Below are positions 3,792 to 16,270 of a DNA stretch of 19,356 nucleotides, piece by piece (position 1 is the first letter of the stretch; the number at the start of each line of letters is the position of its first letter). Origin of the DNA: Tolypothrix carrinoi HA7290-LM1. GTDB lineage: Bacteria > Cyanobacteriota > Cyanobacteriia > Cyanobacteriales > Nostocaceae. A program made the position numbers and the translations under genes. Below the pieces are notes generated by a model. The model did not search any database. It saw only the letters and a list, made by a program, of their open reading frames with translations, and was not told where the DNA came from. The DNA lies in assembly GCA_019358935.1 (NCBI GenBank), contig JAHHIK010000136.1, positions 1 through 19,356 of the forward strand, given 5' to 3'.

Positions 3792-4151
3792 TTTTTTACC
3801 AAACCACCTTCAATTGCAATCTTGGTCTAGCGACAGCTGGGGTTGCTTGGACTATGCAGGATGGCAAAATTGCTAATCACTTTGGTTTTTGGGTTTAGTG
3901 CAATCCTGTACTTCATCAACGGTTTGGCATTCTTTAGACACTTGCAAGATAAAACGTGCTGGAGTGGCAGAGCAATAATGCCCAAAGAAAGGTTCGTCCG
4001 CTCCTGGTTCCTAACTTGACAAACGTAATACTGTTGCAAACAATCAGCAATACCCTACCCTCATAGTTAGAACTGCCTTAACCTGAGCAATCGGTTCTGA
4101 TGCTTTGCTCCAAATTGTATTCATCCATCAAGACTTTAGCAGAGCTGTAAC

Positions 4152-5555
4152 ATGACAAACATCGTAGATGCTTTACGCCAGATGCCGCTGTTTGCGAATT
4201 TAACCGATGAGCAATTGCACTGGGTAGCTGCACAGGGCATCCAGTTGTGGCTGCGGCAGGGCGACACATTTGTCAAGCAAGGAGAACCTGCCGAGCAATT
4301 CTACATCCTTCTGGCAGGTGAACTTGAATTTACGACCAAAGAGTTCGGCGACCAAGAGGTGCATGTCATTAACTTGGATCCTGGGTCATTTTTCGGTCCA
4401 GAACTGTTTCTATTAGACATTCCGGTGTTTCTAGGCACCGGACGTGCTGTCCGCGACAGTCATCTGTTCCGGTTGGAAGAGACGGCTTCTTGGCACATGC
4501 TGGCGACGTTCCCTTCGATCACCCGTGAGGTGCTGCGCGCTGCGGCGCGACTGTGGCAGAACTATGAGGAAGTCCTCCTACATCACGGCAAGCTGAATGC
4601 ACTCGGTACTTTATCCGCAGGTCTCGCCCATGAGATGAATAACCCAGCCGCTGCGGTCAGTCGGGGCGCAGAGCACCTGGAAAAAATCTTTCAAGCGTTG
4701 CCATCCTTGGCACTTAAACTGCATCAGCAGCACCTGACCCAAGATCAACTGACCTTTCTCGCTGACTTACCGCGCAACGCGACAGCACAGGCGAAAACGG
4801 CCTCTTATCTCGATCCACTGACGCAGAGCGACCGGGAGGATGAGGTCACAGACTGGTTAGAGTCCCATGGCGTCTCCGAGGGGTGGCAACTAGCTTCTAC
4901 CCTATTCGGGGCAGGACTAGACACCCAGTGGCTCGACACTGTTGTGGAGCAGATGCCGCTCAGATCCCTTAGCGACGTAGTGGCTTGGCTAGAGGCGACG
5001 CTAACCGGAGTTGGGCTATTGTCTGAGATTAAACAGGGGGCTGCACGTATCTCCAATTTAGTCAACGCTGTTAAGGAGTACTCATACATGGATCGAGCTC
5101 CGCTCCTAGAGGTCGATGTCCATGAGGGACTAGAGAGTACGCTAACAATCTTAGAGCACAAGCTCAAGCCCAGGGTGGTTGTGATCCGTGAGTATGACAC
5201 TCGCCTGCCGCGCATCTACGCTTATGGCAGTCAACTCAACCAGGTCTGGACGAATCTGATTGACAATGCGATTGATGCGATGGATGAACAGGGACGGCTC
5301 CGGGTGCGCACGGTACGAGAGGAGGAGCGCATTGTGGTGGAAATCGCCGACAACGGTTCCGGCATTCCTTCAGAGATTCAAGCTCGAATTCTTGAGCCGT
5401 TCTTCACCACCAAAGATATTGGGAAAGGAACTGGGTTAGGGTTAGATATCGTTCGCCGCATCGTTGTCGGTCAGCACAAGGGGAGTATCCGCGTCTTTTC
5501 CCAGCCAGGGGACACTCGCTTTCTGGTGTGTATCCCCATCAATCTTTCCCATTAA
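4152..5555 (+). CDS. Soluble sensor histidine kinase: cNMP-binding-like domain, HisKA with helical insert, HATPase
   Basis: LRQMPLFANL..GEPAEQFYILLAG (Crp-type cNMP fold); H-box LAHEMNNP; N-box [35 protein letters not shown]. No obvious transmembrane segment. Confidence 0.93.
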   Translation: MTNIVDALRQMPLFANLTDEQLHWVAAQGIQLWLRQGDTFVKQGEPAEQFYILLAGELEFTTKEFGDQEVHVINLDPGSFFGPELFLLDIPVFLGTGRAVRDSHLFRLEETASWHMLATFPSITREVLRAAARLWQNYEEVLLHHGKLNALGTLSAGLAHEMNNPAAAVSRGAEHLEKIFQALPSLALKLHQQHLTQDQLTFLADLPRNATAQAKTASYLDPLTQSDREDEVTDWLESHGVSEGWQLASTLFGAGLDTQWLDTVVEQMPLRSLSDVVAWLEATLTGVGLLSEIKQGAARISNLVNAVKEYSYMDRAPLLEVDVHEGLESTLTILEHKLKPRVVVIREYDTRLPRIYAYGSQLNQVWTNLIDNAIDAMDEQGRLRVRTVREEERIVVEIADNGSGIPSEIQARILEPFFTTKDIGKGTGLGLDIVRRIVVGQHKGSIRVFSQPGDTRFLVCIPINLSH

Positions 5556-6998: not shown

Positions 6999-7226
6999 TT
7001 ACTCAAAAATGGTTAATTCTTTTGGCTGGCACTGCTTAATTTGGAGACGAATTTCTTGACATCTCTCCTGTTCTAGATCCTCAACGTAGCCAGGTAGAAA
7101 CCGTTCAGCTTCGTGTGAACTAAAAAAAGGTCCAAAGTAGTAGGTACAGCAAGGCTGATTAGTGATTATTTCCACCCACCAGGCAAATTCTAACTGCTCC
7201 TCTTTAAAGGTTTCTGTCAACTTCAT
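6999..7226 (-). CDS. DUF1816-family small cyanobacterial protein
   Basis: Signature WWVEIIT..PCCTYYFGPF.S..EA....PGYVEDLEQE..IKQCQPKELT. Confidence 0.88.
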   Translation of the reverse strand: MKLTETFKEEQLEFAWWVEIITNQPCCTYYFGPFFSSHEAERFLPGYVEDLEQERCQEIRLQIKQCQPKELTIFE

Positions 7227-7864: not shown

Positions 7865-8122
7865 TTAGATGTAGGTCTTGTCAATATAGCACCAGCCCCA
7901 ATCCTCACCCACCTCGAAGGACTTTATAATCGGATGACCGGTGGCGTGGAAGTGCTTGATGGCATGCTTATTCTTCGAGGAGTCGCAGCAGCCGACGTGC
8001 CCACAAGTTTGGCAGATGCGCAGATGCACCCAGGTATCCCCAAGTGCCAGACATTCTTCACAACCATACGCGCTGGGTGTAACCTTGTGGTTTAGATTGA
8101 GATGTGTACAAATTGGATTCAT
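7865..8122 (-). CDS. Stand-alone UBP-type zinc finger protein
   Basis: CTHL..GCEECL..WVHLRICQTCGHVGCCDSSKNKHA.KHFHATGHP..W.WCY.D. Start overlaps the kinase stop (ATGA, 8119-8122). Confidence 0.9.
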   Translation of the reverse strand: MNPICTHLNLNHKVTPSAYGCEECLALGDTWVHLRICQTCGHVGCCDSSKNKHAIKHFHATGHPIIKSFEVGEDWGWCYIDKTYI

Positions 8123-9537
8123 AGAATCTTCCTTTTTATAGGTTGTTTGGATAAATTGATGGGCAACCGCACCTGAAAGCGGGTGACACCCGGCTTGGAA
8201 AAGAAGCTGATGTCGCCGTGGTGTATCCCGACCACAACGCGGTAGCAGATGTCTAGACCTAACCCGGTTCCCACCCCCACACCCTTGGTGGTGAAGAACG
8301 GCTCAAATATACGGGGCTGGATATCTGGCGGGATGCCCGGCCCATTGTCGATGATCTCCACCAGCAAGCAATTATTTTCCCGTAAAGTGCGTATCCAAAT
8401 CTGACCCCGTCCACCCATCGCATCAATGGCATTGTCGATCAGGTTAGTCCACACTTGGTTGAGTTCGCTCCCATACGCTCTGATGCGCGGCAGGCTCCAT
8501 TCATACTCGCGCGTCATGACCACCCCCCGCTTGAGCTTATGATTCAGGATGGTCAGCGTACTTTCGATCCCCTCATGCACGTCCACCTCCTGTAGCGGGA
8601 CTTGATCCATGTACGAGTAGTCCTTAACAGCGTTGACCAGAGCGGAAATGCGCTTCGTGCTCTGCTCGATCTCGGACAACAGCCCATCCCCTGTCAGTGT
8701 CGTCTTCAGCCAGTTTAGTACGTCGCCCAGCGAGTCGGCGGGCACTTTCTCCACAACGGCGTCCAGCCACTCAGTGTCCAGCCCTGCCTCTACGAAGGTT
8801 GCGGCGAGTTTCCACCCATGAGCCACGCCGTGCGCGTCCAGCCAAGCTGTGACCTCATCCTCCTGGTCGCTCCGTGTCAGTGGATCAAGTTGTAACGGTG
8901 TTGTGGCGTGCTCTGTCGCGTCGCGCTGCAAGTCTGCAACAAACGCCAGTTGCGTTTTCGTCATCTGCTGCTGATTGAGCTTGAGTACGAGGGATGACAA
9001 CCCTTGAAAGGTTTCTTGTAATTGCCCCGTGGCCCGGCGGGCAGCTGCGGCCGGGTTATTCATCTCGTGGGCGAGGCCAGCGGCTAAGGTGCCGAGTGCA
9101 ATCAGCTTTTCGTGCTTTTGTGACACTGACTCCAGCATTTGTACCCGCTGCGCCATGATGGTCAGAAGCTTGCGGGTAATTGAAGGATAGGTTGTGAGCA
9201 TTTGCCAGAAAACACCCGCTTCCCACTCCAACAGATGGATGGAGTTCAAGGCACGGCAACTGGCAAGGTAAGGCGTATTTAATAAGATAAGCTCAGCAGC
9301 TAAAAACGTTCCTGGTTCAAAGGTGATCACATGCCTCTGCCCATCGCCGACTTTTTTCGTGAGCTGAAGCTTACCTTCTAGCAGCACGTAGAAGTTGTCA
9401 GCCGGATCTCCCTCAGTGTAGAGGAAGTCCCACCGATCCAGCCATACCTCGCTGCCGTGTTCGGACAACCAGTGCAGTTGCTCAGCTGTCAATTCTGCGA
9501 AGAGGGGCACCTGGCGTAAAGCGTCGAGGTCGATCAT
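8119..9537 (-). CDS. Soluble sensor histidine kinase: cNMP-binding-like domain, HisKA with helical insert, HATPase
   Basis: [68 protein letters not shown]. Starts 2 nt after the upstream stop. Confidence 0.93.
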
Positions 9538-9539
9538 GT

Positions 9540-11219
9540 TTACACCTTGCTGAGATATTGATGGATGAACTGAACGGCGATCGCACCCTCGCCCACCCCG
9601 GAAGCGACTCGCTTTACCGACCCATAACGCACATCTCCAGCGACGAAGATGCCGGGTACACTCGTCTCAAGTAAAAAGGGATCACGATCCAGCGTCCAGC
9701 CTCGCGGGCAACGGCGTTCACGCATAAAGTCAGGTCCAGACAGGATAAACCCTTGTTTATCTCGCTCCACAACACCATCCAACCAATCGGTACGCGGCAG
9801 CGCACCGATTAAGATGAACAGCGAAGTTGCAGGAACAGTTTGCTTATCGCCAGTGACGATATTAGCGATCGCGATCGCCTCCAGGCTGGTCTCACCTTTG
9901 GCTTCGACGACACTGGAATGCACCCTTACTATGATGTTGTCTGTCGCCGAAATCTGCTCAATCAGGTACTGTGACATACTTTTAGCGAGGGAGTCGCCGC
10001 GCACCAGAATGGTTACTTTGCGGGCGTACTTAGAAAAGTACATCGCCGCCTGTCCAGCCGAGTTCGCCCCACCGACGATATAGACCTCTTCACCGCTACA
10101 GGCGATCGCTTCGGTCTGCGCTGCACCGTAGTACACGCCAGCCCCAGTCAGCCGCTCGATGCCGGGCATGTTGAGCTTCCGCCACGCCACGCCGGTCGCA
10201 ATCATCAGCGCGTGACAGCTGATCTCGCTCCTATCCGCCAGCTTGACAATCCGATACGGATCCTCCACGCGAACACCAGTCACCTCCTGAGGTGTGAGGA
10301 TCTCCACGCCAAACCGTCTAGCCTGAGCAACAGCGCGCCTAGCCAAGTCCCCTCCACTAAGTCCAACTGGAAAGCCCAGGTAGTTTTCGATGCGGGAACT
10401 CGACCCCGCCTGCCCCCCTGGAGCCTCTCGTTCAATCATCACCGTGCTTAACCCTTCAGATGCCCCATAGACCGCTGCTGCCAGACCAGCTGGACCAGCG
10501 CCCACGATGACCAAGTCGTAGAACGGTCGTTCAGCCTGCGTCCTCAGCCCAATTTTCTCAGCAATTTGGACGTTCGTCGGCTGTATGAGAGGCGAACCGT
10601 CAGGAAAGAGTACAAGCGGTAGGTGTTGCGTATTATCAGACTCGGCGTATGTAACTAGGCGGTGCGCCTCTTCATCCATCTCGATGTCCAACCACTGATA
10701 GGGCACCTGATTGCGACCCAAGAAGTCTTTAACTTGATGGGACTGAGGCGACCAGCGATGGCCAATGACGCGAATCCCTGCAAACGGGGGACGGAACGAT
10801 GAAAGCCAGTCATCGAGCAAATCATTCAGAACGGGGTACAAGCGTTCTTCGGGCGGATCCCATGGCTTCAACAGGTAGTAGTCAATCTTCACGGTGTTGA
10901 TAGCACGGATAGCAGCATCGGTGTCCGCATACGCCGTCAGCAAGGCTCGTTTAGCCTCGGGGAAGAGTTCCATTGCTTCTTCAAGAAACTCCATGCCACT
11001 CATCTGGGGCATCCGCTGGTCTACCAACAACAGCGCCACTGGCAGGTTGCGCAGTTTCAGCTTTTGTAGCACCTCCAAGGCTGTTGCACCTGAGTCCGCT
11101 CGCAGTACCCGGAAGCGCTTGCCGTACTCGGTTCGGAGGTCACGCTCTACTGACCGCAGGACTTCGGGGTCGTCGTCTACCGTAAGCAGTGCAGGCTTAG
11201 CTAGTACAGGGTTAGCCAC
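9540..11219 (-). CDS. Fused response-regulator receiver / glutaredoxin-like / thioredoxin-reductase-like FAD oxidoreductase
   Basis: Receiver VDDD, D67 (LVDQRMP), T95, K118. FAD motif GAGPAG, IENYLGFP, ATG, GGANSA, TSVPGIFVAGDV, ASGVGEG. GTG start with AAGGAG RBS. Confidence 0.92.
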   Translation of the reverse strand: MANPVLAKPALLTVDDDPEVLRSVERDLRTEYGKRFRVLRADSGATALEVLQKLKLRNLPVALLLVDQRMPQMSGMEFLEEAMELFPEAKRALLTAYADTDAAIRAINTVKIDYYLLKPWDPPEERLYPVLNDLLDDWLSSFRPPFAGIRVIGHRWSPQSHQVKDFLGRNQVPYQWLDIEMDEEAHRLVTYAESDNTQHLPLVLFPDGSPLIQPTNVQIAEKIGLRTQAERPFYDLVIVGAGPAGLAAAVYGASEGLSTVMIEREAPGGQAGSSSRIENYLGFPVGLSGGDLARRAVAQARRFGVEILTPQEVTGVRVEDPYRIVKLADRSEISCHALMIATGVAWRKLNMPGIERLTGAGVYYGAAQTEAIACSGEEVYIVGGANSAGQAAMYFSKYARKVTILVRGDSLAKSMSQYLIEQISATDNIIVRVHSSVVEAKGETSLEAIAIANIVTGDKQTVPATSLFILIGALPRTDWLDGVVERDKQGFILSGPDFMRERRCPRGWTLDRDPFLLETSVPGIFVAGDVRYGSVKRVASGVGEGAIAVQFIHQYLSKV

Positions 11220-11224
11220 AATCG

Positions 11225-11230
11225 CTCCTT
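11225..11230 (-). promoter_or_regulatory. Ribosome-binding site of the receiver-oxidoreductase gene
   Basis: AAGGAG 5 nt upstream of the GTG at 11219. Confidence 0.7.
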
Positions 11231-11251
11231 AAAAATTTTTTGCAATAGAAC

Positions 11252-13426
11252 CTATACACTTGCTATCTCGACACTCTCATACTTATCCAACACGGTGACG
11301 CCCTCGCAGAATGCACTCATCTTGAGGAAATGCAACACATGCTCAGGTGCACCAACTACATAGATTTCAACATCGGCACCCAGCTTTTGCTTAGTGAAAA
11401 TAAGGGCCCGCAGACCAGCACTGGTTATACATTCCAGGTTTTGTAGCAACAAGACGAGGCGTTTGATTGGCTTTTGCGTTGCTTTCTGCAACTCTTCTTG
11501 AAGCAGTTGTACAGCACTTGCATCCAATAAGCCAGTTAAGGATATCTTGGCAGTACCTTCAATTACATCTAGCAAAGTTGCGTTAAAAAATATCTGAGTG
11601 GGAAGAAGCCTCACTCTAACTTTCAGTTCGTCTTGAGTAGATGGCAGTTTGACAGTCAGGCTTTCGGCATTAAAATCCGAATACAGTTGCCCATTAATCC
11701 ATACTTCGCCAATGCGCACGCTGCCAGGTGGAAGAATATCTGGCCCAACCCGCAGGATGTTGTCCTTAAAGCCTCCAGGCTTCGGTTTAAAGTACAGATC
11801 CATCGGCTGTTTAGTAATCAGTAGGTTCGTATAGACACAAGCCAAGTAGGCCAGCTCGAACGAGTGGTAACCGCTCATCGCGTGGCTGCCCTTGCCTCGC
11901 TCAGTTCTTCCCAGTAGGTAGGGAAGTCCATTGGCAAAAACATTGAAGTAGATACCTCCAACTTCGGTATCAAGGAAGTAAGAGTTATAAAAAGCTGCCG
12001 ATTCACGGGCCAACCTTTGATACTCAGGGTTCCCAAGTGAGCCAGCCAGGATCAGGTAGGCTAAGATAGCCTGTTCCTGCTGCCACCAAGCCTTGCGGTT
12101 ATGCCATACAAAGCGGTGTACCTCTTCCCCTGGTTCTAGTATGCGTTCCACGACGTCGTACCACCCGCCACGCTGTTGGTCGCTACCAACAGCAGGCATA
12201 ATTCTTGCAATCTTTTCGGCCAGGGCTGCGTACTTTTCTTTTGGTTTCAGGTGGTGCATACGCATGAGGTTCCAAGCAATTTTGAGGTTGTGGCCCACAA
12301 CTGCTCGGTTCTGCTGCCATCCCCAAGTCTTGTCGTGGCTCCAATCCTCATAAAAACGTTCCTGAACAAACGGGCTATGCTCGTAATCCGGGAAATGCTT
12401 TTCAATTGTGTCAAACGTGTACTCAAGCAAATCGGCGTATTCGTCCTTACCTGTCGCCAGCCAGAGATTGATTAGATAAGCTGGGGCATGGTCTCCTACC
12501 GAGTTCCAGTTCTTTTTCGCGCGGTTATGGTTCAAAGACTGGCAGTGGGGGCTGAGGGTAATCGGATCAATGTGTGAGAAAAACCCCCCTTTGTCCGTTT
12601 TGTCCAGGAAATATTTGTTAAACAGATTGATGGTCAACTCAATGTCATTCGTAATGCGTGGATCGCCCGTTACCCGGCAAGTCTGGGTAAGGCCAGCCAG
12701 TGCATAAATCTGCTCATAAGCTGGGATAGCATCATAATCATCCCCAAATTCTGAGGAAAATATTTTCTGCTCGCTGCCATCTGGCTGAACGTCAACTGCA
12801 TGATACCAATAGCAAATTCCTTCGCCCTCATCGAGAAAACGCATGTGTTCACGCAGGTATTCAGTCCCTTTTTCGGCTGCCTCTAGGTAACGGTCTTCCC
12901 CAGTCATCAGGTAGGCTGTGGCAAAACCGTAAACCAGACGCGAAATGGTGTCGGTTTCCTGACGATTAGTTCCTCGCTTTGTACCAACCCAGCCTAGCTC
13001 AGTGCGATATTTTCGATAATCAATTTCGCCATCACCGAATTGCGCTTTTAGATAAAAATTGGCAAGACTTTGTATCTGGTTGACCCACCAATTTTGTTTT
13101 TCAAAAACATACTCACTTTCTGTTCTGCCCAGAAAGACTATATGTTTGCCTTCAAACTTGTACTGACCCGCCTCAAGATAGAAAATGCCATACACGAAGA
13201 GATACCGACTTGTCCCAAGCATTGATCCAATTTGGCTAGTACAATCGTAGTAAGGCTCTCCAAGATTGCGCACCAGTTCAGCAGAGGTCATTGAGGTTAA
13301 TGCTACCTCAATTTTCCTGCCATCTGACGTGTTGAGGCCGAAAGTACCAAAAGCTCCCTTTTGTGAGTCAAAATCACTAATATAACCAGCGATCGAATCT
13401 GAAAACGAAAAGCCCATGTTACTCAT
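11252..13426 (-). CDS. AGE (N-acylglucosamine 2-epimerase/cellobiose epimerase-like) family protein with C-terminal STAS domain
   Basis: SRLVYGFATAY, YEQIYALAG, WNSVGDH, VGHNLKIAW, AWWQQEQA, GYHSFEL fit the AGE alpha6/alpha6 barrel pattern. Last 115 aa (11252-11599) contain LTGLLDAS..LECITSAGLRAL (STAS). RBS AGAGGA upstream. Confidence 0.85.
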   Translation of the reverse strand: MSNMGFSFSDSIAGYISDFDSQKGAFGTFGLNTSDGRKIEVALTSMTSAELVRNLGEPYYDCTSQIGSMLGTSRYLFVYGIFYLEAGQYKFEGKHIVFLGRTESEYVFEKQNWWVNQIQSLANFYLKAQFGDGEIDYRKYRTELGWVGTKRGTNRQETDTISRLVYGFATAYLMTGEDRYLEAAEKGTEYLREHMRFLDEGEGICYWYHAVDVQPDGSEQKIFSSEFGDDYDAIPAYEQIYALAGLTQTCRVTGDPRITNDIELTINLFNKYFLDKTDKGGFFSHIDPITLSPHCQSLNHNRAKKNWNSVGDHAPAYLINLWLATGKDEYADLLEYTFDTIEKHFPDYEHSPFVQERFYEDWSHDKTWGWQQNRAVVGHNLKIAWNLMRMHHLKPKEKYAALAEKIARIMPAVGSDQQRGGWYDVVERILEPGEEVHRFVWHNRKAWWQQEQAILAYLILAGSLGNPEYQRLARESAAFYNSYFLDTEVGGIYFNVFANGLPYLLGRTERGKGSHAMSGYHSFELAYLACVYTNLLITKQPMDLYFKPKPGGFKDNILRVGPDILPPGSVRIGEVWINGQLYSDFNAESLTVKLPSTQDELKVRVRLLPTQIFFNATLLDVIEGTAKISLTGLLDASAVQLLQEELQKATQKPIKRLVLLLQNLECITSAGLRALIFTKQKLGADVEIYVVGAPEHVLHFLKMSAFCEGVTVLDKYESVEIASV

Positions 13427-13464
13427 CGAATTTCCTCTATTCGTGTAAATTAGTTACCTGGAAA

Positions 13465-15615
13465 CTATTTGGAAATTAGAACGACAACGCTATAGCCTTT
13501 AACAAGACAGACATCATCTGAAACCATAATCTCTTGACCCGGTTCCACAATATCCATGGGGGAAGACTCAGCAGTGTCTACAACTTTGTACCATTCCCTA
13601 TCCTGAAGAAAGGGAAGTTCAAAGTGGAGATCCTCCCAGTACATATTGAGCATGACGTGAATATCTACTGATCCTTCAAAGCCCCCTACAGTAAATGCAA
13701 GAACTCTGGCCTGAGGGTCGTCCCAACCCGGGTTAAATAATTTACAACCATGCCAAGAGATGTCTGCTAGACCGCGCTCATTCACTTCGCCGCTGAAGAA
13801 ATGGCGGCGACGTAAGGCAGCATGACAATAGGACTTGCGGAAATTGAACATTAGCTTGAAGAACCTGAATATATCCGAGTTCTTCTCCACAAGATTCCAG
13901 TCAAACCAACTAATCTCGTTATCCTGGCAGTAAGCATTATTGTTGCCCTTTTGGGTGCGTCTGACTTCATCACCAGCCAGAATCATTGGTACGCCCAGGG
14001 ACAGCAAGAGAATGGCTGCGAAATTTTTAATTTGTCGCCGACGCAATGCATCGATTTCTGGATCTTCAGTCTCTCCTTCAACGCCACAATTCCAGCTCAA
14101 ATTGTCATTGATGCCATCCCGATTGTCTTCACCATTGGCTTCATTGTACTTGTCGTTGTACGAGACCAAATCATTGAGGGTGAACCCATCATGACAAGTG
14201 ATGAAATTGATACTGTTGATCGGTAAATGACCGCTGCTTTGGTAAAGATCGGCACTTCCGGCAAGGCGCCAGGCGACTGCGCCGACCAGTCCTGGATCTC
14301 CTTTGACAAAGCGCCGGATGTTGTCTCGGAAGTGTCCGTTCCATTCTGCGTAACGATATCCAGGGAATTTGCCAACCTGATAGAGTCCGCCGGCATCCCA
14401 AGCCTCAGTAATGATTTTGGTCTCAGCTAGGACTTCGGATGTTTCAATATGCCAAAGTACCGGTGACTGCTCTGTTGGTAATCCGTCCTGCCCACGGGCT
14501 AGGATAGAACCTTCATCAAACCGGAAGCCATCAACGTGCATCTCTCTCACCCAAAATTTCAGACAATCCACAATCAACTTATTCACCATAGGGTGGTTGC
14601 AGTTGAGGGTATTCCCACACCCGGAGTAGTCCATGTAGTACTGACTGTCGTGGGATACGAGGTGATAGTAGACGCTATTATCAAGGCCTTTGAAGTTAAT
14701 GGTTGGACCCTGATGGTTGCCTTCGTTGGTGTGGTTAAAGACCACATCCAGGATGACCTCAATCCCAGCTTTATGTAATGCCTTGACCATATTCCGAAAC
14801 TCCCTAATGGGGCTTCTTTCAGTAGGAGAAGCACAATACGAGGTTTCAGGAGCAAAGAAGCTGAGCGGGTTGTATCCCCAGTAGTCTTTCAGTAGTTTGC
14901 CGTTAACTTCTCGGATAAAGTCCTTTTCATCAAAGTCAAATATCGGCAGGAGTTCAACAGCTGTTATTCCTAACTCTTTCAGGTAAGGGATCTTCTCGAT
15001 GATTCCATAAAAGGTACCGGGGTGTTTACAGCCTGAGGAAGGTGACTTAGTAAATCCGCCAACATGCACCTCATAAATGATGGTTTCACTCATTGGTCGG
15101 TTGAGGGGACAGTCACCTTCCCAGTCATAATCTGAGATATCGATGACTACACTGCGCATAGAGGTCGTCAGGTTGTCTTTTGGTCCCAAAGCATCGATGC
15201 GGTTCCAAAGGGCATTGCTATTGCTCTTAGCGTAGGGATCAATCAGTACCTTGTTTTTGTTGAAGCGGTATCCTGCCCCGTGTAAATCCTGAGGACCATC
15301 AACTCGATAGGCATAGGCAGCGCCGGGTTTCAATCCTCTGACATAGACATGCCAGAAGTGGAATGTTTTATTTATTTTTGGATTGAATTTAATAATCTGT
15401 ATAGGTTCTGGGTCATCATGCTTATCAAACAACAACAATTCGACAGATGTGGCATGCTCTGAAAAGATTGAGAAGTTTACTCCGTCTTTGTCCGGAGTCG
15501 AACCCAAAGGATGTGTACTTCCCGGTTCTACTTGGTACGTAGTTTTAGCTAATTCCGTCTGATATTTAGGTGTTGTTGCAGTCATTTTGCCATTCTTCTC
15601 ACTATAGAGTGTCAA
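13465..15615 (-). CDS. glgX: Glycogen debranching enzyme / isoamylase (GH13 with N-terminal CBM48-like domain); true start may be the ATG at 15585
   Basis: GVNFSIFSEHA, YAYRVDG, IIYEVHVGGFT, YWGYNP, DVVFNHT, DGFRFD (nucleophile), EAWD (acid/base), HDGFTL.D, GNNNAYCQDNEISW. Catalytic triad intact. Confidence 0.93.
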   Translation of the reverse strand: MTLYSEKNGKMTATTPKYQTELAKTTYQVEPGSTHPLGSTPDKDGVNFSIFSEHATSVELLLFDKHDDPEPIQIIKFNPKINKTFHFWHVYVRGLKPGAAYAYRVDGPQDLHGAGYRFNKNKVLIDPYAKSNSNALWNRIDALGPKDNLTTSMRSVVIDISDYDWEGDCPLNRPMSETIIYEVHVGGFTKSPSSGCKHPGTFYGIIEKIPYLKELGITAVELLPIFDFDEKDFIREVNGKLLKDYWGYNPLSFFAPETSYCASPTERSPIREFRNMVKALHKAGIEVILDVVFNHTNEGNHQGPTINFKGLDNSVYYHLVSHDSQYYMDYSGCGNTLNCNHPMVNKLIVDCLKFWVREMHVDGFRFDEGSILARGQDGLPTEQSPVLWHIETSEVLAETKIITEAWDAGGLYQVGKFPGYRYAEWNGHFRDNIRRFVKGDPGLVGAVAWRLAGSADLYQSSGHLPINSINFITCHDGFTLNDLVSYNDKYNEANGEDNRDGINDNLSWNCGVEGETEDPEIDALRRRQIKNFAAILLLSLGVPMILAGDEVRRTQKGNNNAYCQDNEISWFDWNLVEKNSDIFRFFKLMFNFRKSYCHAALRRRHFFSGEVNERGLADISWHGCKLFNPGWDDPQARVLAFTVGGFEGSVDIHVMLNMYWEDLHFELPFLQDREWYKVVDTAESSPMDIVEPGQEIMVSDDVCLVKGYSVVVLISK

Positions 15616-16270
15616 TTAGTCATTTACCTCAATTCCGCAGCTAATTTCTTCCTTGATACGTAGGCAATTGCAGGGAATCTTATCCGATAGAATTGCACTG
15701 ACCATCATGCCCGTATGAATTTCCAGTTGAGCGATCAGCAACGCTTCAAACAAGAGATGTTGTCCTGGGAAAATAACTCGCTCAAAGTACCAATTTGGAA
15801 TATTCGCGATCCGAATCACCTGAATAAGGTTAGTAGCATTAACTTAGCTACAAAGAAGTTTACCGGAATGTTCAGAAGGCAGAGGATCAAGAATTTGAGC
15901 CATAATTGCAGGACTTATGCTAAATCATACTGCTAATTAGCAACCTTATATTTCGGGCGTTAACCCTGTTTTTGAACTGAACCCAAGGACTCGGCCTTTC
16001 ACTTTACTCGTGTAATCGTGAAGGTCAGATAAACAAGGATGGCCTGTTCATACTGCCAGAAGGTTTTAGTGTTGAACCAAGGAAAATCCAGACACATCTT
16101 TGTGCAAAAATGTAAGATGCTCTCCTCCGTTTTTATCGCTTACTCAGGGAACCTTGTTGTACCTCTATTGAGACTGGACTTACACTAGGAAGGTAATTGA
16201 CTTTTGGCTGACTATTAGAGCTATATGCACTCTTAAGTACAACTTATACATAATAAGTCCTCTTGGTTGA

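Follow-up and report, generated by a model that had tools for sequence, protein, structure and literature searches.

In Synechocystis sp. PCC 6803, a cyanobacterium, the icfG cluster (slr1852-slr1862) encodes, according to the available text of two studies, the AGE-family protein Slr1855, the STAS proteins Slr1856 and Slr1859, the GlgX protein Slr1857, the IcfG phosphatase and the Slr1861 kinase (PMC8670252, PMC12329169). A second catalogued arrangement is the pairing of a kinase with a response regulator of the 'TrxB' class, known from two-component censuses and exemplified by S. coelicolor SCO7298 with its kinase SCO7297 (accessible portions of PMC9739842 and PMC9953108); the literature searched assigns no function to regulators of this class. 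Relatives of both systems stand side by side in a five-gene operon of Tolypothrix carrinoi HA7290-LM1, carried on a stretch of 19,356 nucleotides (nt; hereafter the window) that is the whole of contig JAHHIK010000136.1 (C136) of the source genome (G000; 7.96 Mb, 42.3% GC). We propose, tentatively, that the operon combines a cut-down icfG sugar cassette with a widespread two-component module of the TrxB type, and that the two are expressed together as a redox-stress unit that ties glucan mobilisation to thiol state.

All five genes lie on the reverse strand, in the order glgX (13465..15615), AGE::STAS (11252..13426), a REC::Grx-like::TrxR-like (glutaredoxin-like, thioredoxin reductase-like) flavoprotein gene (9540..11219), a gene for a soluble histidine kinase with a sensor resembling cyclic nucleotide monophosphate (cNMP)-binding domains (8119..9537) and a ZnF-UBP gene (7865..8122). 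The first two genes are referred to as the sugar half (A), and the flavoprotein and kinase genes, with or without ZnF-UBP, as the signalling half (B). The successive genes are separated by 38, 32 and 2 nt, and the last two share a 4-nt ATGA overlap. A preliminary description of the window had reported these five intact, co-oriented open reading frames (ORFs) with this spacing; ORF and profile analysis bears it out, with Pfam and NCBIfam profiles upholding the domain identities of all five proteins.

The glgX product (716 amino acids, aa, from a TTG start in the ORF list, with Pfam/NCBIfam profile matches) is a GH13 isoamylase-type debranching enzyme encoded in a position like that of Slr1857. 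An alternative ATG start at 15585 would give 706 aa, a length typical of its relatives. The catalytic motifs D367, E404 and D476 are present, and the protein scores above the TIGR02100 cut-off (721 against 641). The Slr1855-like second protein (724 aa) consists of an N-terminal beta domain, an AGE-fold (alpha/alpha)6 enzyme, a C-terminal beta domain and a fused STAS domain (11252..11599), the last being most similar to the STAS protein that comes after glgX in icfG clusters. The best fold matches to the modelled (alpha/alpha)6 barrel are glucose and cellobiose 2-epimerases (Foldseek E 5e-15 to 8H1N). Three motif histidines, H313, H379 and H521, are conserved across a 100-row alignment and are probably equivalent to the catalytic residues. 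The protein's scores do not reach the equivalog cut-offs for EpiA and AGE, and it is at most 20% identical to solved members. AGE and CE (cellobiose epimerase) enzymes have a glutamate three residues after the histidine; in the motif GHNLKIAW (residues 378-385, region 12284-12292) the third residue after the histidine is a lysine, conserved family-wide, and its presence in place of the glutamate possibly indicates a different reaction. The N-terminal all-beta domain (13091-13426) has no Pfam or Atlas match.

In the best 80 of 591 confirmed stretches examined as AGE loci, glgX is present in 70 and free STAS genes in 43, with an RsbW-type kinase or SpoIIE/PP2C phosphatase in 33 of those 43. Neither a Slr1861-type (RsbW) kinase nor an IcfG-type (PP2C) phosphatase is encoded in the window or in any of 22 flavoprotein-linked loci. 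The sugar half is thus a reduced icfG cluster of the slr1855-slr1859 type that lacks the IcfG phosphatase and the Slr1861 kinase.

The flavoprotein (559 aa, GTG start) carries the REC phospho-site residues D15, D16, D67, T95 and K118; D67, T95 and K118 are kept in all 128 flavoprotein sequences, as are the FAD and NAD(P)H motifs. D67 is the predicted phospho-acceptor, as the preliminary description had it, and the enzymatic rather than DNA-binding output that it proposed is supported by these motifs and by the TrxR fold of the model (TM 0.93 to 5MH4 over the target). What it had passed over is the absence of the CxxC pair. The TrxR-like domain contains no CxxC in any of the 128 sequences, the segment GVYYGAAQTEA aligning to the CxxC of 7JYP, and the acidic residue after the lost motif (E370) is retained in 126. 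The Grx-like domain, assigned from sub-cut-off matches (PF00462, TIGR02200) and the secondary structure of the model, has no CxxC or CxxS either; it reads WSPQS here and WSP at 156-158 in most of the 128, and no column holds more than four cysteines. Because both CxxC motifs are absent, the classical dithiol route should be impossible for this protein. Its profile scores are 218 for TIGR01292 (cut-off 343) and 74 for TIGR04018, the Bdr/YpdA family (cut-off 340). We assign it to the 'TrxB' class on these sequence features. Other TrxR-like enzymes without CxxC, in the accessible text of PMC10294844, reduce ferredoxin, flavodoxin or bacillithiol disulfide with electrons taken from FAD. REC-less forms of the Cys-less Grx-TrxR protein also occur, stand-alone in the source genome (C81:11704-12987) and fused to a cNMP-like domain, followed by UBP, in another locus (L120).

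The neighbours of flavoprotein modules point to a redox theme, as does the polysulfide induction of sco7298 (available text of PMC9952706), whose tie to the window protein is the census class. Genes resembling egtB and egtD (ergothioneine) occur beside the module in 8 of 106 loci each (L153, L159, L160, L169, L175, L177 and L181 among others) and DsbA-like genes in six; a SpoIIE phosphatase gene is found in five, and AhpC-like, glyoxalase and aldo-keto reductase genes also occur.

The kinase (472 aa) has its H-box histidine H157 at 9067-9069, followed by a helical insert and a HATPase domain. The H-box is invariant in 121 of 121 sequences, which with the invariant D67 leaves the predicted sites of the His-to-Asp relay envisaged in the preliminary description intact. 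A cNMP phosphate-binding cassette has Gly-Glu and Arg. The sensor here, variable across the family, has the cNMP-binding fold (PF00027, 54.6 against a cut-off of 27.5) but not the phosphate-binding Arg, the Arg column being occupied by Y, F, H, W or S; the Gly, kept in 117 of 121 sequences, is Ala in the window. This pocket favours the ligand other than cAMP that had been suggested. The window kinase gene is only 72-75% identical at the DNA level to that of the related locus L001, where the other genes are 92-97% identical, and appears to have been swapped recently relative to close relatives. In the source genome, a kinase of the same family in which a receiver-like N-terminus replaces the cNMP-like sensor (C118:20743-22158) is followed by LtrA.

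The ZnF-UBP protein (85 aa), an optional accessory domain, matches the bacterial ZnF-UBP PDB 2IDA with an E-value of 2.5e-36. Of the best 120 of 6061 longer matches, 17 have the domain fused to a cNMP-kinase of this family; further fusion partners are MFS proteins, TerC, antiporters and diadenylate cyclases, the range expected of a regulatory domain that moves between proteins. In the kinase comparison, the kinases of the window fall among the kinase-UBP fusions. Both frames resemble fusion linkers where they adjoin: INLSK and a short tail close the kinase frame, and the UBP frame has TTYKKEDS ahead of its Met. An assembly error as the cause of the split was considered and is ruled out: a public sequencing run, possibly the source of the assembly, contains the stretch unbroken with zero differences, and a biocrust contig of independent origin reads through from the kinase into UBP without a gap. 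Since 4-nt overlaps also occur in loci L128, L155, L168 and L178, no direction of fusion or fission is claimed. The domain shares PF02148 with its bacterial counterpart 2IDA and with the eukaryotic ZnF-UBPs of HDAC6 and USP5. The Arg of the CGR motif in HDAC6 binds ubiquitin's tail; where alignments of HDAC6 and USP49 have CGR, the protein here has CCD (CCD or CCN in 25/25). The additional cysteine, Cys46, is invariant (25/25), lies beside a predicted zinc ligand, is Gly in eukaryotic UBPs and is a candidate redox thiol.

The joining of the two halves was followed across 201 genomes of the family. The row sets were 81 of 96 for AGE (15 distant or fragmentary rows were dropped, and two interrupted by internal stops were classed as unfused), 122 of 145 for the flavoprotein (less 21 that had no REC domain and 2 that were incomplete) and 39 of 69 for UBP (the rest were below 65% identity or partial). 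The flavoprotein gene lies directly downstream (36-1303 nt) of 29 of 31 close AGE::STAS fusions, and downstream of none of 46 unfused icfG clusters and none of four distant fusions. The linkage persists down to 59% flavoprotein identity, while the cluster itself is patchy (26/201 genomes). Some filamentous cyanobacteria therefore carry a trimmed icfG copy directly upstream of a kinase-flavoprotein pair. The four-gene form is also found on plasmids of Nostoc edaphicum, where it is interrupted before the kinase gene, and Gloeothece verrucosa; one of the plasmids is conjugative. The linked AGE proteins form one clade (42 rows, FastTree support 97), and the linked flavoproteins are compatible with one origin: in the best tree of 35 of the 128 rows they fall on one side with support 55, and one change is needed. 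An 81-row flavoprotein tree needs three changes, so repeated independent recruitment of the flavoprotein is not demonstrated.

The preliminary reading of the locus is supported only in part, and the gene-neighbourhood comparison that had been suggested as a check gives a divided answer. The halves are co-conserved within one lineage, but UBP follows in only 6 of the 31 close fusions (the full five-gene order, also present in G038 from another family), 93 of 122 flavoprotein copies have no AGE or other sugar genes in front, and glgX, AGE and STAS are absent from all 80 metagenome flavoprotein loci, many of which are on short contigs (kinase in 54, UBP in 14). The operon is therefore not a single conserved five-gene system, and the signalling module does not need the sugar half. 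No further member of the linked lineage was found among the 32 genomes with a match in an evenly drawn set of 400 class-level genomes (G000 included). Among five non-cyanobacterial genomes with AGE::STAS, one encodes a full-length flavoprotein, at a locus without sugar genes. Over 26 linked loci, distance correlations are 0.86 and 0.89 within the halves and 0.45-0.66 between them, and the halves diverge semi-independently. Taken with the divergence of the window kinase from that of L001, these correlations indicate that one lineage has conserved a core of four genes, with exchange of the kinase and of UBP. In one genus (g5), a classical split icfG cluster has a stand-alone flavoprotein module some 21-23 kb upstream (L098-L099 in G218, and four more genomes).

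The linked lineage also differs at the residue level. In 38 distinct flavoprotein-linked STAS domains, C666 (11429-11431) is present in all and C707 (11306-11308) in 35; neither occurs in any of 80 free icfG STAS proteins, and all 80 have Y or F in the C666 column. With locus L011, whose flavoprotein gene is cut by a contig end, counted as linked, the figures become 39/39 and 36/39, and neither cysteine is found in any of 14 distant fusions or in three further distant AGE::STAS fusions. S669 (11420-11422) aligns with the phospho-Ser column of SpoIIAA, a column that is Ser in 80/80 free STAS proteins and T in 23, S in 11 (the window among them) and A in 4 of the linked ones. The cysteine pair suggests a thiol switch, a reading confounded by single origin. 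Partner switching, to which the preliminary description had assigned the STAS domain, is doubtful here because the kinase and phosphatase are absent from 22/22 linked loci and the phospho-Ser is not invariant. Distant AGE::STAS fusions without the flavoprotein (L095, L210, L211, L037, L046 and L250) often have D or E at or beside the phospho-site, resembling a phosphomimic.

In the mechanism we propose, the kinase, with UBP as an optional zinc or thiol accessory, would sense a small molecule other than cAMP or a redox cue and phosphorylate D67. The phosphorylated REC domain would gate electron flow from NAD(P)H through FAD to an outside acceptor, as in the CxxC-less, TrxR-fold ferredoxin-NAD(P)+ reductases (FNRs) and Bdr. 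Maltodextrins released by GlgX would yield NADPH when catabolised and would have their reducing-end sugar modified by the AGE enzyme, itself tuned in cis by the fused STAS domain via C666 and C707. The halves would be coupled indirectly, by having a transcript and a redox pool in common, and would have been brought together in a single ancestral capture. We observe the gene content and the residues, and from them we infer every biochemical step. Since the neighbouring kinase and phosphatase have been lost and two new conserved cysteines have appeared in the STAS domain, glucan breakdown is likely redox-tied rather than phospho-switched.

Several observations weigh against this proposal. The linkage counts are not independent, because the linked flavoproteins may all stem from one capture, and the STAS cysteine pattern likewise amounts to one evolutionary event. 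L093, at the base of the AGE clade, keeps both cysteines despite having no flavoprotein. The GlgX of the linked lineage has also fixed new cysteines (3/122 diagnostic sites, against 4/43 in AGE::STAS). S or T is retained at the phospho-site in 34 of 38 linked STAS domains, and three RsbW-type kinases are encoded elsewhere in the source genome. All of the 15 other loci without free STAS likewise have neither kinase nor phosphatase. The many flavoprotein copies without sugar genes, among them a second module in the source genome (contig C13), the lower distance correlations between the halves, and the 90-450-nt gaps with hairpins that separate the halves in relatives also count against it.

The alternative that best survives, though we consider it unlikely, is hitch-hiking: two independent stress cassettes adjoined on a mobile island and co-inherited without functional coupling, the STAS cysteines being lineage drift. 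The flavoprotein tree is compatible with the single origin this entails, and the patchy distribution, the plasmids, the insertion sequence (IS) debris around the operon, the recombination of the halves, the many other neighbours of the signalling module and the cysteines gained by GlgX would all fit. However, the link is missing in only 2 of 31 copies even though the kinase, UBP and the genes upstream are freely replaced, the gap between the halves has shrunk to 32 nt here and is of similar size in L002, and C666 is invariant at a position that is aromatic in every free STAS protein.

Direct coupling of the halves is improbable. It would have the phosphorylated, Cys-less flavoprotein reduce or oxidise a C666-C707 disulfide or a mixed disulfide at C666, thereby switching the AGE enzyme, with the STAS domain supplying the missing dithiol in trans. 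The evolutionary form of this idea, to which we give equally little weight, is that the STAS domain was rewired from phospho- to thiol control, a kinase-gated, Cys-less Grx-TrxR flavoprotein captured after loss of IcfG and Slr1861 using C666/C707 as its missing dithiol. The confinement of the cysteine pair to the flavoprotein-linked lineage and the retained E370 speak for it, as does the precedent of the mycobacterial STAS protein RsfA, which is switched by a disulfide (available text of PMC7693655). So do two clade members without the flavoprotein: L094, which has neither cysteine, and L012, which has one. The Cys-less state of L094 may be ancestral, however, given the basal position of this branch in the clade. 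Three quarters of flavoprotein copies, moreover, have no such STAS domain yet share the same active-site residues, and the normal acceptor must therefore differ from STAS. A complex prediction of the flavoprotein with FAD and the STAS domain, run without controls, gave a score of 0.00 and is evidence neither way.

Partner switching in trans is similarly hard to credit. Here an unlinked RsbW/PmgA-type kinase would phosphorylate the fused STAS domain, and the signalling half would merely be co-regulated as part of the same regulon. The largely retained S or T, Ser in the window (S669), would permit this, and besides its three RsbW-type proteins the source genome encodes several SpoIIE-like phosphatases; in Synechocystis, Slr1856 and Slr1859 are both interaction partners of PmgA (available text of PMC12329169). 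Against it stand the Ala in 4/38 linked domains and the free exchange of S and T where free STAS proteins have only Ser, and two icfG-cluster queries returned no Slr1861-like match in the genome at E 1e-6. Finally, the idea that the flavoprotein replaced the kinase and phosphatase is weakened because fusions without the flavoprotein also lack both, and the 15 other loci without free STAS tie the loss to STAS fusion instead.

The surroundings of the operon are degraded. Immediately upstream, a DUF1830 gene (15616..15903, reverse strand) abuts glgX and is broken by an in-frame stop (15844-15846); relatives have an intact copy in the same position. The flanking IS66, IS5, IS4-like and IS630-type ORFs are in pieces, one with an in-frame stop, which agrees with the decay reported in the preliminary description. 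That account had overlooked the broken DUF1830 gene and the step in third-position GC content (GC3) between the halves (0.49 against 0.61-0.66). As a general mark of recent joining the step was dropped, since it is confined to the window's sub-branch. Among named relatives, Scytonema sp. PCC 10023 is nearest across glgX-AGE (96% nt identity). A promoter and terminator scan of the window was uninformative, its counts lying below those expected from shuffles (10 against 16.1 and 9 against 12.9). In public reads, present as assembled contigs of relatives (85-97% alike) and not usable as transcript evidence, a single contig from an RNA library bridges glgX and AGE; no RNA piece among the matches listed bridges AGE and the flavoprotein gene. 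Downstream lies a DUF1816 gene (6999-7226), also near the cluster in L001, L018, L089, L217 and L221, in either orientation. On the forward strand, 4120..5555 is the relic of another flavoprotein-kinase module: 31 nt left over from the 3' end of a flavoprotein gene, followed by a second kinase gene (4152-5555) whose product belongs to the same family and is 60% identical.

The second complete module of the source genome (C13:87255-93351) has a flavoprotein 78% identical to that of the window, a PIN-type toxin-antitoxin insert, two kinases, UBP and LtrA. Its neighbours are Old Yellow Enzyme-like and rubrerythrin-like ORFs, named from their sequence alone, with MFS and glyoxalase genes; no sugar genes are adjacent, and about 26 kb separate the module from a GH63 gene upstream. 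GH63 glycosidase genes, sometimes with an amylo-alpha-1,6-glucosidase gene, occur near flavoproteins whether or not glgX-AGE is present (L105, L112, L151; L005, L007, L008, L010, L027-L029), one of the cases being a metagenome locus; this is a second connection with the hydrolysis of glucans or solutes. Among further neighbours the membrane protein LtrA, absent from the window, is the most frequent: 10 of 22 linked loci encode it downstream of the kinase, and it also occurs in Deinococcus.

The preliminary description knew of no functional account of the combined system. Its sugar half belongs to the known icfG cluster, and both halves are known or catalogued; new, as far as sequence comparison can tell, are the joined form and the residue-level change at C666 and C707. 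A literature search to which most subscription papers and supplements were closed contained no description of either. One short operon thereby joins two questions, the role of the icfG sugar enzymes and STAS proteins and the identity of what Cys-less TrxB-class regulators reduce. The linked lineage yields residue-level predictions (C666, C707, S669, D67 and UBP C46), and culturable Nostoc and Fischerella strains exist. Were the favoured proposal true, a regulatory domain would have changed its input chemistry upon exchange of its signalling partners. Rewiring of the STAS domain, if true, would amount to a direct His-Asp-flavin-disulfide circuit switching a sugar epimerase beside glycogen debranching, and to the first substrate for a TrxB-class response regulator. 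Under mere hitch-hiking, the finding would be that two known cassettes adjoin.

The locus resembles several described systems in part. Like RsfA, it has a STAS domain with two conserved cysteines in place of strict phospho-control, a likeness in cysteine number; unlike RsfA, the domain is enzyme-fused, mostly retains S or T and has no anti-sigma partner nearby. The flavoprotein shares its fold and its FAD and pyridine-nucleotide motifs with low-Mr thioredoxin reductase TrxB (TIGR01292; PDB 7JYP, 5MH4) and AhpF, but differs in its missing CxxC, its score below the family cut-off and its additional N-terminal REC and Cys-less Grx-like domains. With the CxxC-less FNRs and Bdr/YpdA it shares a TrxR fold without CxxC and, by a working analogy, transfer from FAD to an outside acceptor; it lies far below the TIGR04018 cut-off, and its sequence is nearer to true TrxR than to FNR.

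The closest counterparts remain the two with which we began. The AGE protein is of the same family as that of the icfG cluster, 67% identical to the copy in Synechocystis salina (L073), which has the full icfG arrangement; glgX and STAS again occur together, and many flavoprotein-linked relatives have DJ-1, CMD and slr1852-like genes upstream. Here, by contrast, glgX precedes AGE, and the phosphatase, the kinase and the second STAS protein are missing. In place of two free STAS proteins with an invariant phospho-Ser there is one STAS domain, fused to AGE and bearing the extra cysteine pair, and a two-component redox module follows downstream. That module matches the TrxB-class pair in placing a regulator with REC and a TrxR-like output beside its cognate kinase, likened to SCO7298 by census class only. 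The same flavoprotein-kinase-UBP order is found on a Streptomyces plasmid, and flavoprotein-kinase pairs occur in Deinococcus and Caballeronia; in the window, the pair stands behind a sugar cassette.

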